Translations under genes and position numbers: made by a program | Shown here: positions 3,581-8,842 of the stretch, piece after piece | How the letters are laid out: every line of letters begins with the position of its first letter | Position numbering within the stretch: the stretch's first letter is position 1 | Notes under the pieces: generated by a model | What the model saw: only the letters and a program-made list of their open reading frames with translations | The model's database searches: none | Told to the model about the DNA's origin: nothing | Assembly: GCA_965263035.1 (NCBI GenBank) | Contig: OZ253580.1 | Location: 3,776,001 to 3,840,000 of the forward strand | Origin: Acidobacteriota bacterium | GTDB lineage: Bacteria; Acidobacteriota; UBA6911; RPQK01; JAJDTT01 | Direction of reading: 5' to 3' | Length of the DNA stretch: 64,000 nucleotides

Positions 3581-6364
3581 GTGGATGAAGAACTCGACCT
3601 GAAAGGAACCATCAACCTTCCCAGAACCCGATTCCGGATGAAGGCGAATCTGCCCGTTCTGGAGCCGCGGATTCTTAAATCTTGGGAGGAGTCGGGGATT
3701 TACGGGAAGATCCGCGAGTCGCGGAAGGGCCGGCCTCTCTTCATCCTTCACGACGGTCCCCCCTACGCCAACGGGCATCTCCACGTGGGACACGCCCTGA
3801 ACAAGATCCTCAAGGATCTCATTGTCCGTTCCAAGACCATGGAGGGTTACGATTGTCCTTTCGTGCCGGGGTGGGACTGCCATGGGCTGCCCATCGAGAT
3901 CCAGGTCATGGACCGAAAGCGGACCGACCTGGACCCGTTGGAAGTGCGCCGGCGATGCCGCCGGCACGCCGGCAAGTTCGTGCGCATCCAGGGGGATGAG
4001 TTCCGCCGCTTGGGTGTCACGGGAGACTGGAACGCGCCCTACCTGACCATGAGCCATTCCTATGAAGCCGAGACGGCTCGGCTACTGGGTGATTTCGTCC
4101 GCCGGGGAAGCGTCTACAAGGGTCTGAAACCGGTTCATTGGTGCATTCACTGTGAGACGGCTTTGGCCGAGGCCGAAGTGGAGTATTCAGAACATGTAAG
4201 CCCCTCGGTCTACGTCCGGTTTCCCGTGACGGGAGGACTTCATGGGCTGGACGTCGGCGCCCGCCCCATCTCGGTTCTGATCTGGACCACGACCCCTTGG
4301 ACCCTCCCCGCCAACATGGGTCTCTGCTTTCATCCCGACTTCCAATACGCGTTGTTGGAGACCCGGGACGAGGTTTTCATCCTGGCTGCCGATCTGGTTC
4401 CCCGCGTGTCCAAAGAGTGTGATTTGGGTGATTACCGGATTCTGGGACGGCTCCGGGGAGCCGCCCTCGAGGGTCTCGAGTGCCGCCACCCATGGATTCC
4501 GCGCCGGTCTGCGGTCGTCTTCGGAAATCACGTCACCATGGAACAGGGCACCGGAGTGGTCCATACCGCTCCCGGACACGGAGAAGAGGACTACCGTCTC
4601 GGGGTCGACAACGGTCTTGAGGTCTATTGTCCGGTGGACGGATCGGGCCGGTTCCTGCCGGAGGTGGATCACTTCGGGGGCATGCCTGTGTTCAAGGCCA
4701 ACCCTTCCATCAACGGCTTCATGGCCCGGGAAGGCCATCTGGTCTGGGAAGGGCCGTTCGAGCACAGTTATCCTCATTGCTGGCGCTGTCACAACCCGGT
4801 CATTTTTCGCGCCACGGCCCAGTGGTTCATCAGCATGGACCGGGAAGATCTGCGCGGCCGTGCCCTGCGCGAGATATCCAGGGTGAAGTGGCTTCCCTCC
4901 TGGGGCCGGGAGCGGATCCACAACATGATCTCCAGCCGGCCGGACTGGTGCATCAGCCGGCAGAGAACCTGGGGCGTTCCAATCGTCGCCTTCTACTGCA
5001 AAATATGCGGAAAGATCCTGCTGGAGAGCGATATTATCGAACATGTGTCACGGGTCTTCGAGCGGGAGGGAGCCGACGCCTGGTACCGGAGGCCTGCGTC
5101 AGAGCTTCTCCCGGAAAGCACCCGTTGCGCCTGTGGAAGCGAAGAATTCGAAAAAGACAAAGACATACTGGATGTTTGGTTCGACTCGGGGGTCAGCCAT
5201 CACGTGCTGCGGAATACGCCCGGACTCGACTGGCCCGCGGATCTCTACCTGGAGGGTGGAGACCAGTTCCGGGGCTGGTTTCACAGCTCCTTGCTGGTCG
5301 GGGTCGGCGTCAGCGACGGAGCTCCCTACAGGTCGGTTCTGTGCCATGGATGGACGCTGGATCCCGAAGGGAAAGCCATGTCCAAATCCAGAGGCAACGT
5401 CATTTCTCCCCAGGACATCACCAAGCGGGACGGCGCCGAGATCTTGCGTCTCTGGGTCTCATCCATCGACTACACCGAAGACGTCCGCCTGGGGGAAGAG
5501 ATCCTGTCCCGTCTCCGGGACGCCTACCGCAAGCTGAGAAATACGAGCCGCTTCCTCTTGGGCAACCTTCACGACTTCTCTCCGGAACTGGCGGTCCCGG
5601 ACGGGGAGCTGCTGGAGTTGGATCGTTGGGCTCTGGCCCACACCGCCGCCACGGTACGGCGCGTGGAGAAGGCGTACCGGGATTTCGAGTTTCACACCGT
5701 CTACCACTCCCTCTACCATTTCTGTGTCGTGGGGCTTTCCAGCTTTTATCTCGACGTTCTGAAGGATCGCCTCTACGTCTCGGCGGCCGATTCCAGAGAA
5801 CGCAGGTCGGCCCAGACGGCCCTGTTCCGGATCGCGGACGCATTGGTGCGGCTGTTGGCTCCGATCCTGCCCTTTACCACGACCCAGATCTGGGAAGAAC
5901 TTCACGGTCAGAATCCTCCGGCCGAGTCGGTCCACATGGCCGAGTTCTCCCGGGAACTGGACCGGTATGCGAACCCCGAGCTTCTGGAGCGATGGGAGCC
6001 GCTCCTGCAGATCCGCCACCAGGTCAGTAAAGCACTTGAGGAATGCCGGCAGGAGAAGCTCATCGGGAACTCGTTGGAGGCGACGGTCAGGATCGAGGCC
6101 GGCGCGGAGACTTACAGGTACCTCAGCCGGTATTCGAAGGATCTGGCCTCCGTCTTCATCGTCTCCGAGGTCGAACTCGGACTGAGAGAGGAAATGGAGA
6201 CGGATGAGACGAAGCTCAGCGTGACCAGAACCCAGGCGGAGAAATGCGCCCGGTGCTGGAACCATAGACGCTCGGTGGGGACCCATCCCGATCTCCCGCA
6301 CGTCTGCTCCCGCTGCCGCTCGGTGTTGGAACAGATCGGTGCCCTCAGTAGAAGTCCGGGATGA
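3581..6364 (+). CDS. ileS: Isoleucine--tRNA ligase (type 1)
   Basis: HDGPPYANG-HVGH, WTTTPWTLP, WCISRQR, AMSKS, C-terminal CARCW...CSRC zinc finger. Confidence 0.98.
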   Translation: MDEELDLKGTINLPRTRFRMKANLPVLEPRILKSWEESGIYGKIRESRKGRPLFILHDGPPYANGHLHVGHALNKILKDLIVRSKTMEGYDCPFVPGWDCHGLPIEIQVMDRKRTDLDPLEVRRRCRRHAGKFVRIQGDEFRRLGVTGDWNAPYLTMSHSYEAETARLLGDFVRRGSVYKGLKPVHWCIHCETALAEAEVEYSEHVSPSVYVRFPVTGGLHGLDVGARPISVLIWTTTPWTLPANMGLCFHPDFQYALLETRDEVFILAADLVPRVSKECDLGDYRILGRLRGAALEGLECRHPWIPRRSAVVFGNHVTMEQGTGVVHTAPGHGEEDYRLGVDNGLEVYCPVDGSGRFLPEVDHFGGMPVFKANPSINGFMAREGHLVWEGPFEHSYPHCWRCHNPVIFRATAQWFISMDREDLRGRALREISRVKWLPSWGRERIHNMISSRPDWCISRQRTWGVPIVAFYCKICGKILLESDIIEHVSRVFEREGADAWYRRPASELLPESTRCACGSEEFEKDKDILDVWFDSGVSHHVLRNTPGLDWPADLYLEGGDQFRGWFHSSLLVGVGVSDGAPYRSVLCHGWTLDPEGKAMSKSRGNVISPQDITKRDGAEILRLWVSSIDYTEDVRLGEEILSRLRDAYRKLRNTSRFLLGNLHDFSPELAVPDGELLELDRWALAHTAATVRRVEKAYRDFEFHTVYHSLYHFCVVGLSSFYLDVLKDRLYVSAADSRERRSAQTALFRIADALVRLLAPILPFTTTQIWEELHGQNPPAESVHMAEFSRELDRYANPELLERWEPLLQIRHQVSKALEECRQEKLIGNSLEATVRIEAGAETYRYLSRYSKDLASVFIVSEVELGLREEMETDETKLSVTRTQAEKCARCWNHRRSVGTHPDLPHVCSRCRSVLEQIGALSRSPG

Positions 6365-6410
6365 TGGGAGACGATTTCTTTCGGAAGCGATTCTTGCGGT
6401 GGAGAAGACG

Positions 6411-7841
6411 ATGAGACTTCTGGCGATCGGAGTGGCGGCAGTGGTACTGACGCTCGATCTCCTCACCAAGTGGTGGGTCAAGAACACCGTCTGGATGCAC
6501 TACCACAAGGTCATCGACGGATTCTTCACGATCCACTTCGTCCGCAACGAGGGCATTGCCTTCGGCCTGTTCCATGCCAATCCATCGGCCTGGAAACCGC
6601 TGATCCTTTCTTTCCTGGCCGTGGCAGCGGCGATCATGGTGCTGTATTACATCTGGACCAGTCCTCCCGAGGAAAGAGGCGTCCAATTGTTTCTGGGGCT
6701 TCTGTTGGGAGGGATCCTGGGGAATTTCTGCGACCGGCTGTTGCGTGGTTATGTCGTCGATTTTCTCGAGTTTCATTGGCATGACCGTTTCGCTTGGCCG
6801 ACCTTCAATCTGGCCGATGCCGCAATCACCTGCGGAGTCGCGGCGATTCTCTACCAGGGCTTTCTTGGAACGGGTAACGGGGACCGGGCCGCGAACCGTC
6901 CCGGCCGGAGAAACTCCGGCTCCTTGGGTGCGATTCTGCTGGCGGGTATGCTCTCGGCGCCCCTGCTGGGGGGATCGTCCTCGCCCGGGGCGCAAGAAAT
7001 CGTGGACCGCGTCCAGGAGCGGTACGAGCGGGTCGAAAGCTTCTCCGCCGATTTTCGGCAGGTTTTCCAGTCGCAGGGGGTCTATTTCGAGAGCGACTGG
7101 GGAGAGGGGATCCTGCTGATGAAACGCCCGGGAAGGATGTACTGGGAATACCAGCGTCCCACCAGGAAGCTGTTCGTGGCCGACGGCAATCAGACCTTCT
7201 TCTACGTTCCGAGTGAGAATCAGGTGACGATCTCCGATCTGGATCCGGAGACCGCGGATACGCCGCTGCTTTTTCTGCTGGGACCCAAACGGATCCGGGA
7301 CGACTTCCTGGTGCAATTCGAGACCGGGGAGGGGCCCTTGGACGAATCCAACCTGCTCCTGCGCCTGACGCCCATTCAGGCCCGGCCTGATTTCAGCTAT
7401 CTGTTGTTGGAGCTGTCCCCCAAGACTTTTCTCATCCACAGACTGTCCGTAGTCGAGCCCATCGGGAACCGGAACGACTACATCTTCAGCCGTTTCCGGG
7501 AGAACGTGAAGATTCGAGACAAACAGTTCCGCCTGGAGTTGCCGGACGGAGTGGAGATCATCCGAATCGGATCCGGCGCCGGTCTCAGGCCGGAGGAAGA
7601 TCCCGGCCGGTCTCCCCATCGAAGTCGGCTCGACACCGGGGTGGAGACGACTGGTACGTCAACAGCCCGTGGCGAAAGTCGTCGCGGCATTCGACCGTCC
7701 CTGCATCCCGGCGGACTGCGTTGCGACTCGGTCACATACTCCCGGTATGCTCCCTCATCGCGCCTGGTCCGGCGGGCGCAGGAACGGTCTCGGTGCTCGC
7801 GAGACTTTCACCACGGACTGTTAAGGAGAGTGTCGAGTTGA
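6411..7841 (+). CDS. lspA: Signal peptidase II fused to LolA-like lipoprotein carrier domain
   Basis: LspA motifs DLLTK, NEGIAFG, GNFCDR, VVDF, FNLAD; then a hydrophobic segment and LolA fold (SFSADFRQ, KRPGRMYWEY, VADG, TPLLFL, F-LPDGVEII); no stop between the domains. Confidence 0.9.
   Translation: MRLLAIGVAAVVLTLDLLTKWWVKNTVWMHYHKVIDGFFTIHFVRNEGIAFGLFHANPSAWKPLILSFLAVAAAIMVLYYIWTSPPEERGVQLFLGLLLGGILGNFCDRLLRGYVVDFLEFHWHDRFAWPTFNLADAAITCGVAAILYQGFLGTGNGDRAANRPGRRNSGSLGAILLAGMLSAPLLGGSSSPGAQEIVDRVQERYERVESFSADFRQVFQSQGVYFESDWGEGILLMKRPGRMYWEYQRPTRKLFVADGNQTFFYVPSENQVTISDLDPETADTPLLFLLGPKRIRDDFLVQFETGEGPLDESNLLLRLTPIQARPDFSYLLLELSPKTFLIHRLSVVEPIGNRNDYIFSRFRENVKIRDKQFRLELPDGVEIIRIGSGAGLRPEEDPGRSPHRSRLDTGVETTGTSTARGESRRGIRPSLHPGGLRCDSVTYSRYAPSSRLVRRAQERSRCSRDFHHGLLRRVSS
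7661..7822. mobile_element. MITE-like palindromic element, family A copy 1
   Basis: Imperfect terminal inverted repeats AACAGCCCGTGGCGAAAGTC / GACTTTCACCACGGACTGTT, nested internal stems, second copy at 39777-39926. Confidence 0.75.
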
Positions 7842-8842
7842 GCGAGATTCGGGCGAATATAACGGCCGTGGGGATGTACGTTCCGGAGAAGCGCGTCACC
7901 AACCGCGACTTGAGCCGGGTTCTGGACACTTCCGACAGGTGGATTCGAGAGCGAACCGGGATCTCGGAACGCCGAATTGCCGGCAAGGACCAGGCCAATA
8001 GCGATCTCTCGGTTCTGGCCATTCGAAACGCTTTGGAAGGCACGCCGCATCGCCCTGAAGATATCGACCTCATCATCGTCACAACCGTCACTCCGGACAT
8101 GATGTTCCCTTCGACCGCCTGCCGGGTCCAGGAAAAGATCGGGGCCAGGAACGCGTGGGGATTCGATCTGTCCGGGGCTTGCTCCGGATTCCTTTTCGGC
8201 CTCTCGACGGCTGCGCAGTTCATTCGGACGGGAACCCACAAGAAGGTCCTGGTGGTGGGAACCGACGTGATGAGCTCCATCATCGACTTCGAGGACCGGG
8301 CCACCTGCGTTCTCTTCGGAGACGGCGCCGGGGCCGTCCTCCTGGAGCCCACCGAGGAGGAGGAGACGGGCATCCTGGACGTGACCCTGGGGTGCGATGG
8401 GTCAGGAGGGAAGTTCCTGTTCATGCCGGCCGGAGGGAGTCACCGCCCCGCGAGCCACGAAACCGTGGACAAGCGAATGCACTATGTCCATCAGGACGGC
8501 AGGAACGTCTTCAAGTTCGCGGTTCGGGTGATGTGCGAAACTTCGGTCGAATTGCTCCGGCGAAACGGCATTCCTAACGATCAGCTGTCGCTTTTCGTCC
8601 CCCACCAGGCCAACATGCGAATCATCAAGTCGTCCATGACGCGCCTGAAATTGAGAGAGGAACAGGTTGCGGTCAACATCGACCGCTATGCCAACACCAC
8701 GGCGGCGACCATCCCCACCTGTCTGGCCGAAGCTCACCGGCAGGGACGATTGAAGAAGCGGGACAAGATCCTCATGGTCTCCTTCGGAGCGGGATTCACC
8801 TGGGGTGGGATTCTTCTCGGCTGGGGAATGGATCCACCGTAA
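7838..8842 (+). CDS. fabH: 3-oxoacyl-ACP synthase III
   Basis: WIRERTGI, GACSGF (catalytic Cys), LFGDGAGA, PHQAN, YANT, GAGFTWG; SD AAGGAG and TTG start overlapping the upstream stop. Confidence 0.95.
   Translation: MSEIRANITAVGMYVPEKRVTNRDLSRVLDTSDRWIRERTGISERRIAGKDQANSDLSVLAIRNALEGTPHRPEDIDLIIVTTVTPDMMFPSTACRVQEKIGARNAWGFDLSGACSGFLFGLSTAAQFIRTGTHKKVLVVGTDVMSSIIDFEDRATCVLFGDGAGAVLLEPTEEEETGILDVTLGCDGSGGKFLFMPAGGSHRPASHETVDKRMHYVHQDGRNVFKFAVRVMCETSVELLRRNGIPNDQLSLFVPHQANMRIIKSSMTRLKLREEQVAVNIDRYANTTAATIPTCLAEAHRQGRLKKRDKILMVSFGAGFTWGGILLGWGMDPP

Follow-up and report, generated by a model that had tools for sequence, protein, structure and literature searches.

An In-Frame LspA-LolA Fusion in One Order of Acidobacteriota and the Probable Processing of Its Product

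How can a polytopic membrane enzyme and a soluble periplasmic carrier be made from a single gene? The lipoprotein signal peptidase LspA spans the membrane with four transmembrane (TM) helices, its N- and C-termini both being cytoplasmic, whereas LolA shuttles through the periplasm in soluble form. The question is raised by one gene in a 64,000-nucleotide stretch of DNA from an Acidobacteriota bacterium (contig OZ253580.1, positions 3,776,001 to 3,840,000; hereafter the window), where an earlier note, made from the sequence letters without database searches, had described a single open reading frame (ORF) with LspA, a linker, a hydrophobic segment, and LolA. Translation, together with Pfam and NCBIfam searches, recovers all of these elements in that order. 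As set out below, the in-frame fusion is genuine and occurs in roughly half of the genomes sampled from one order of Acidobacteriota, and its product is probably a polyprotein from which soluble LolA would be released. The novelty of the locus is that two well-known, essential steps of outer-membrane building are encoded by one gene throughout an entire acidobacterial branch.

Both halves of the encoded protein are recognizable as complete members of their families. The Peptidase_A8 profile (PF01252) matches residues 8-149 with 131.3 bits against a cut-off of 25 (E 4e-38), and the lspA equivalog TIGR00077 scores 113.6 bits against a cut-off of 73.95. The two aspartates that the earlier note had picked out, D117 within VVDF (codon 6759-6761) and D136 within FNLAD (codon 6816-6818), which we take from structural work on 5DIR to be the catalytic pair, are invariant in an alignment of 49 fused homologues, as are N46, G48, A50, F51, N105, D108, and R109. 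Residues 207-375 match LolA (PF03548) with 93 bits against a cut-off of 23.6 (E 2.3e-26), and the lolA equivalog TIGR00547 covers residues 189-384 with 123.8 bits against a cut-off of 112. An AlphaFold2 (AF2) model built on the same 49-member alignment has a mean predicted local distance difference test (pLDDT) score of 81.3, and the four LspA helices (residues 2-25, 62-83, 89-112, and 134-152) and the LolA barrel are folded confidently. Foldseek matches the LspA part to 5dir_A (TMt 0.86) and 6ryo_A (TMt 0.81), and its top 12 matches for the LolA part are all LolA structures, 2w7q, 6f3z, 4ki3, and 8orn among them (TMt 0.80-0.86, E down to 1.4e-16), so that the description of a full LolA-like domain holds at the level of both profile and fold. 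A search of the ESM Atlas gave no usable match. The predicted template-modeling (pTM) score of the whole model is 0.51, which implies no fixed mutual arrangement of the two domains, and a complex prediction of LspA residues 1-160 against LolA residues 186-386, made with its own alignment, returned a score of 0.00, an outcome that speaks neither for nor against docking. The fusion gene is the sole Peptidase_A8 gene of this 97%-complete genome, and it also encodes the only LolA above the equivalog cut-off, the one other LolA-like protein reaching 44 bits against 112. Both halves must therefore function, and LspA activity on diacylglyceryl-prolipoproteins is expected from the lack of any other Peptidase_A8 gene.

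A sequencing or assembly error that removed the lspA stop codon or shifted the frame could in principle give the same picture, all the more as sister families carry the two genes one base-shift apart. We compared the contigs of four runs from four studies over positions 6300-7950; these best DNA-matching runs may include the source sample, and the four are thus not fully independent. Three of them (X3, X13, and X15) supply one contig each across 6300-7704 with 1-3 differing letters and 0 gaps, and a diverged strain in the fourth (X17) is represented by pieces spanning 6518-6912 and 6783-7074, likewise with 0 gaps. Indels are listed only at 7710-7757, within a repeat near the 3′ end of the frame, and none occurs before 7710; in particular, the region 6860-6990, which the earlier note had proposed to check against reads, contains neither a stop nor an indel in these contigs. 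The dissenting evidence is one X15 contig in which 152 nt are skipped (6483 to 6636) and whose shorter side amounts to no more than 25 letters; short-sided joints of this kind often stem from other organisms. Runs labelled as RNA contain the stretch as contigs, which does not in itself demonstrate transcription. Given that the identical frame also occurs in 14 other genomes from three families, and that 93 protein clusters of varied source share it, an artefact is extremely improbable, and we conclude that the in-frame LspA-LolA fusion is genuine.

The breadth of this conservation was assessed in both protein and genome collections. When a protein search was limited to lengths of 261-833 residues, 117 hits were obtained. 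Both PF01252 and PF03548 are found in 93 of them, which are 39-93% identical to the query and belong to Acidobacteriota wherever a source is named; the combined architecture that the earlier note had suggested looking for in databases is thus well represented there. One further hit (P0080) has the LspA domain only, and the other 23, which are unrelated, match the tail of the query alone (11-20% of its length) because this tail is encoded by a miniature inverted-repeat transposable element (MITE), the repeat mentioned above. Some of the JGI entries are named "lipoprotein signal peptidase/chaperone LolA", but NCBI uses only "signal peptidase II", so that LolA may be scored as missing in automated inventories. 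In a HMMER search of 1.84 billion representatives, P0039 (386 aa, aligned to query residues 1-384) is the only full fused protein among the best 150 matches, with P0093 and P0080 as partial ones; these 150 include no second, divergent fused family, in a library that is clustered at 50% identity, lacks names, and is hence weak on taxonomic range. One of the proteins encountered, P0141 (358 aa), contains two Peptidase_A8 stretches in tandem and represents a duplicated LspA. When genome contigs were searched with an LspA pattern, most of the 80 loci proved to be plain lspA genes from many phyla, and a few were fused or adjacent pairs in records named "Acidobacteriota bacterium".

Residues 1-390 were then compared with 401 genomes of the phylum, including that of the window, and 30 lspA/lolA junctions were read base by base. 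A single frame is present in 15 of the 30, corresponding to 15 of the 27 genomes from the order to which the window belongs: its own genome, all four others of the genus, both genomes sampled from another genus of its family, all six of family f3, and both of family f7. The remaining 12 genomes of the order are unfused and carry lolA directly after lspA (seven in f5, two in f6, and one each in f2, f4, and f8). Three junctions were read at the class level, and none of these is fused. Among the matches listed for 8 other class-level and 363 phylum-level genomes, whose junctions were left unread, there is no fused form outside the order, an observation that is not a claim of absence; the listed matches cover one domain each, often on separate contigs, and their E values reach about 1e-39 at the strongest, versus 2.3e-83 or stronger for every fused gene. 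Conservation of the fusion thus extends to roughly half of the genomes sampled from a single order. Separate genes in relatives had been named beforehand as an observation that would tell against the fusion, and the answer is divided: close relatives are fused, and more distant members of the same order have the split arrangement.

The unfused members of the order indicate how the single frame came about. In nine of the 12, namely seven f5 genomes, one f4 genome (G049, which is unpublished), and one f2 genome, the stop codon of lspA shares the bases ATGA with an ATG that lies in the lolA frame. The separate LolA of five f5 genomes would begin like MRYGRVLVLALLPVALMEGNPSAETAE..., with the basic n-region, hydrophobic core, and small residues of an ordinary Sec signal peptide, and in the best-scoring unfused examples free of LolC/E the product begins like MRYGRVLVLALLPVALM..., again with a basic n-region followed by a hydrophobic core. 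At two further loci, one from f6 (L020, genome G318) and one at the class level (L018, genome G063), lspA and lolA share the same frame, and only a stop codon stands between them (TAG in the first, TGA in the second), so that one substitution would suffice to fuse the genes in either genome. The LspA and LolA parts from the 30 loci were concatenated for a quick maximum-likelihood tree, in which the f1 fusions group with those of f3 at a Shimodaira-Hasegawa-like approximate likelihood ratio test value of 90 and the f7 fusions fall in an unresolved fork; this tree needs two changes of state, and a single origin is still compatible with it. In the ancestor, lspA and lolA would have been adjacent and translationally coupled through ATGA, and a change of frame would have removed the stop codon and merged the genes. 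The comparison thus makes a clear case that a tightly coupled gene pair became fused when the stop codon of lspA was lost, and the genomes together provide a stepwise record of such an event, from separate genes to adjacent genes, to a four-base overlap or a same-frame stop, and to a single frame.

What separates the two domains in the fused protein is a junction whose components match those listed in the earlier note: the basic linker RAANRPGRRN, the hydrophobic segment LGAILLAGMLSAPLL, and a TTG at 6924 with GGAG at 6907-6910 are all present. The last basic residues of the linker correspond to a signal-peptide n-region, and at least one lysine or arginine lies within the 8 residues before the hydrophobic stretch in 80 of 92 fused homologues. 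Within the segment, AF2 places a 15-residue helix (residues 171-185) at low confidence, with pLDDT values of about 43-55 for the segment and below 50 for residues 155-170 and 184-190. This helix is not packed against LspA, and its sequence is poorly conserved among homologues, 72 of 92 of which have a proline within the hydrophobic stretch. The uncharged stretch has a median length of 16.5 residues in the fused proteins (range 8-29, n = 92) and of 14 residues in separate LolA precursors (range 9-22, n = 15), a measure used for this comparison with signal peptides only, as the genuine helices of LspA give 12-20 residues by the same procedure and length alone is not decisive. A basic and then hydrophobic internal segment, placed after a cytoplasmic end and followed by a periplasmic domain, is accordingly present at a position homologous to that of the true signal peptide of the sister lineages. 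In sister families, this is where the separate LolA has its N-terminal Sec signal peptide; the apparent fifth TM helix is therefore the former signal peptide of LolA, now internal. The topology proposed in the earlier note, with a cytoplasmic basic linker, one membrane crossing, and a periplasmic LolA, is supported by these comparisons as a predicted arrangement.

Two fates had been suggested for such a protein, a membrane-tethered LolA and a polyprotein released by signal peptidase I, and the sister lineages favor the second, since their separate lolA carries a Sec signal peptide at the place of the segment. We therefore think it rather probable that the fusion product is a polyprotein cut by signal peptidase I. 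In this scheme, LspA would insert with its four helices and leave its C-terminus in the cytoplasm, the basic linker would remain inside, and the former LolA signal peptide would cross the membrane with its N-terminus in and its C-terminus out, carrying the LolA domain to the periplasm. Signal peptidase I would then most likely cut after the segment, yielding soluble LolA and an LspA with an additional C-terminal membrane stub. The released LolA would work as usual with the other components of the pathway, and an inventory of the kind that the earlier note had recommended shows which of these the genome contains: two signal peptidase I genes and Lnt are found above their cut-offs, two Lgt genes exceed the Pfam cut-off (G000:C1:1628565-1629320 and 5470459-5471166), and immediately downstream of a LolC/E-like gene (326 bits, below the cut-off of 362) lies the best LolD-like gene, at 255 bits. 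There is no Pfam hit to LolB in the genome. The presence of only one high-scoring LolC/E-like permease with the best LolD-like gene adjacent to it looks like a one-permease (LolDF-like) layout.

Several observations weigh against release by signal peptidase I. The start codons of the separate lolA genes, on which the comparison with signal peptides depends, were chosen in this analysis and are not taken from annotation. Under a loose rule, 85 of the 92 fused proteins have a candidate -3/-1 site behind the hydrophobic core, but the same rule finds sites after LspA TM1 in 72 of 89 controls and after TM3 in 92 of 92; with alanine required at -1, the counts become 50 of 92 for the junction, 52 of 89 for TM1, and 2 of 92 for TM3, so that the rule is non-discriminating. 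Even under its loose form, 7 of the 92 fused proteins have no site. The window protein itself, as had been remarked from its letters, shows no classical AxA in the stretch LLGGSSSPGAQ. Cleavage would also leave LspA with an unusual fifth membrane stub, which the enzyme would have to tolerate, and the two mature products are predictions.

The alternative that survives best, although we consider it unlikely, is that the fifth TM segment stays uncleaved and keeps LolA attached to LspA on the periplasmic face of the inner membrane, where it might, for example, serve as the first acceptor of processed lipoproteins. The frame is kept across lineages down to 39% identity, which would be unexpected for a pure accident, and both the lack of a clear AxA in the window protein and the 7 homologues without a candidate site are what an anchor would lead one to expect. 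The role of soluble carrier could, moreover, fall to a second LolA-like protein, which has a signal peptide too. The segment is nevertheless the descendant of a cleavable signal peptide; it is poorly conserved, usually interrupted by proline, and short, falling to 8-12 uncharged residues in some homologues. The AF2 model gives no packing of the segment on LspA that would suggest an anchor, and the spacer between segment and LolA fold, at about 10 residues, would be too short to let a tethered LolA reach the outer membrane. The second paralogue, for its part, lies far below the lolA equivalog cut-off. It is a 234-aa protein with its own signal peptide, encoded at about 3172928-3173629 of G000:C1 (L002:1357-2058, + strand), and it scores 30.2 bits with PF17131 (LolA_like), weakly with LolA2_flexi, and, as given above, below the cut-off with TIGR00547. 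Adjoining its gene on the opposite strand is a LolD-like ABC ATPase (L002 2114-2824, 221.9 bits).

An extension of the tether would be a relay of two carriers, in which LolA anchored to LspA couples processing to hand-over and the divergent paralogue is the soluble shuttle; we regard this as quite unlikely. Either scheme would have consequences for the accepted picture of the pathway: with a tether, an exception would have to be made to the view that LolA shuttles freely, and a relay would be a two-carrier scheme new to the Lol pathway, in which, to our knowledge, nothing of the kind is known.

Very unlikely, in our estimation, is that LolA is made mainly as a separate protein from the internal TTG at 6924, the fused frame being a tolerated by-product. 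This TTG (residue 172) is kept in all five genomes of the genus, the window has a GGAG 13 nt upstream of it, and the ancestors would have re-initiated at this place through the ATGA overlap. The GGAG, however, is found in only one of the five genus members, namely the window, and at a long spacing, whereas all five carry a GGAG 6 nt ahead of the lspA ATG. A product started at TTG 6924 would be without the basic n-region, and the coupling that allows re-initiation would be gone once there is no stop codon. One fused locus (L012) has no in-frame ATG, GTG, or TTG anywhere in the junction, and another (L009) has none before the mature part. The internal start that the earlier note had offered as a refutation of the fusion is thus retained as a codon in the five genomes of the genus, but its GGAG is specific to the window.

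That LspA itself cuts LolA at a lipobox and thereby makes it a lipoprotein, an idea invited by the adjacency of enzyme and hydrophobic segment, has a negligible probability and is excluded at the sequence level, as none of the 92 fused proteins has a lipobox-like [LVI][ASTVI][GAS]C motif at the junction and only 16 of the 92 have any cysteine there.

Set beside known systems, the N-terminal half resembles stand-alone LspA (MEROPS A8) in its family scores above the cut-offs, two catalytic aspartates, four helices, fold (TMt 0.81-0.86), and position after ileS; the reference structures are 5DIR from P. aeruginosa and 6RYO/6RYP from S. aureus. It differs from stand-alone LspA by about 230 additional native C-terminal residues that form the linker, the crossing, and LolA, to which 60 MITE-encoded residues are added in the window. 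The C-terminal half shares with stand-alone LolA (structures 1IWL/6F3Z from E. coli and 2W7Q from P. aeruginosa) the equivalog match of 123.8 bits and the fold (TMt 0.80-0.86). It differs from stand-alone LolA in lacking both an N-terminal signal peptide and a start codon of its own, its signal-like segment being internal and located behind a polytopic enzyme. The closest relative is the ATGA-coupled lspA-lolA pair of families f5, f4, and f2, in which the gene order, the proteins, and the position of the hydrophobic segment are the same, but in which there are two frames and two products rather than one frame. A precedent for the proposed logic is FbcH of Bradyrhizobium japonicum, a single precursor of cytochromes b and c1 that is split at an internal signal-like segment, a cleavage that has been shown experimentally. 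The likeness is confined to that logic, namely a polytopic protein, an internal signal sequence, a periplasmic domain, and a split after translocation; the proteins are unrelated, and for the LspA-LolA fusion the cleavage is proposed by comparison with its relatives. A different LolA fusion was encountered in a metagenome protein, P0156 (797 aa), which combines a BlaR1-type peptidase M56 with GWxTD and a C-terminal LolA; it likewise carries LolA at the C-terminus of a membrane protein, but the partner differs.

The author of the earlier note did not recall the fusion as characterised, and a full-text literature search, which left the supplementary tables of Lol-pathway surveys uncovered, found no paper that describes it. 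Public protein collections and JGI names do show the architecture, and its biology appears to be undescribed. As a natural "Rosetta stone", the fusion ties the processing of lipoproteins to their transport, and it is also a natural test case for cleavage of an internal signal peptide behind a polytopic membrane protein in bacteria.

The two ends of the gene were defined by comparison with relatives (Table 1). Although the ORF list gives an open frame on the + strand from GTG 6339 to 7841, the start is the ATG at 6411, since the N-termini of homologues align as MRLLAIG or MKLLAIG. Of the span 6411-7575 originally proposed, the start is thereby upheld and the end is not, position 7575 lying close to the end of the LolA domain and the frame running on, with no stop at 7575, to a TGA at 7839-7841. 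The additional codons have two sources. An Arg/Pro-rich tail aligns among genus-level relatives only, and more distant fused proteins stop right after ...VEVIEQ. In three relatives (G170, G200, and G088) the frame ends after 416 codons at a TAA located just before the AAGGAG of fabH. The MITE is absent from the site in these three genomes, and the window contains it at codons ~417-471. The last 60 codons (residues ~417-476) are thus read-through of the MITE, whose insertion displaced the native stop.

Table 1. Coordinates of the fusion gene, its parts, and the flanking genes in the window.
Feature	Positions	Strand	Description and basis
lspA-lolA fusion ORF	6411..7841	+	476 codons and TGA; stop-free single frame; translation, N-termini of homologues
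LspA (signal peptidase II, Peptidase_A8) domain	6432..6857	+	residues 8-149; Pfam, TIGR00077, AF2, Foldseek
Linker after TM4	6867..6920	+	residues 153-170 (GTGNGDRAANRPGRRNSG); basic, predicted cytoplasmic; pLDDT <50 at 155-170
Internal segment, former LolA signal peptide	6921..6989	+	helix 171-185 and small-residue stretch 186-193 (GGSSSPGA); contains TTG 6924-6926
LolA domain	6975..7562	+	residues 189-384; TIGR00547, Pfam, Foldseek
Genus-specific Arg/Pro-rich tail	7563..7660	+	residues 385 to ~416; native stop of relatives at tail end
MITE-like element	7661..7822		162 bp; 20-nt terminal inverted repeats 7661-7680 / 7803-7822; codons ~417-471
ileS	3581..6364	+	upstream gene; Pfam tRNA-synt_1, Anticodon_1, zf-FPG_IleRS
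fabH (KAS III)	7838..8842	+	downstream gene; Pfam ACP_syn_III, ACP_syn_III_C; AAGGAG at 7824-7829

A search of the window's own genome with the MITE gave 43 matches, comprising the site itself, one 37-nt fragment, and 41 copies of about 160 nt at 87-98% identity, a count for which 40 of 241 candidates were scored. In keeping with a repeat, depth is about 200-fold or more higher over the element. A fourth member of the genus (G148, locus L006) has at the site a remnant of about 40 nt made up of the element's two ends (in the region aligned to window 7655-7825), which suggests either that an old insertion later lost its interior or that an excision left a footprint. Other copies in public contigs tend to be flanked by CTAG on both sides. 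Within the genus-specific tail, positions 7610-7648 form an 18-nt imperfect inverted repeat (72% complementary, with a 3-nt loop).

On its upstream side the fusion gene follows ileS after a gap of 46 nt, and an ileS-lspA neighborhood is the usual arrangement. Downstream, the TTG start codon of fabH at 7838 overlaps the new TGA stop codon of the fusion as TTGA.

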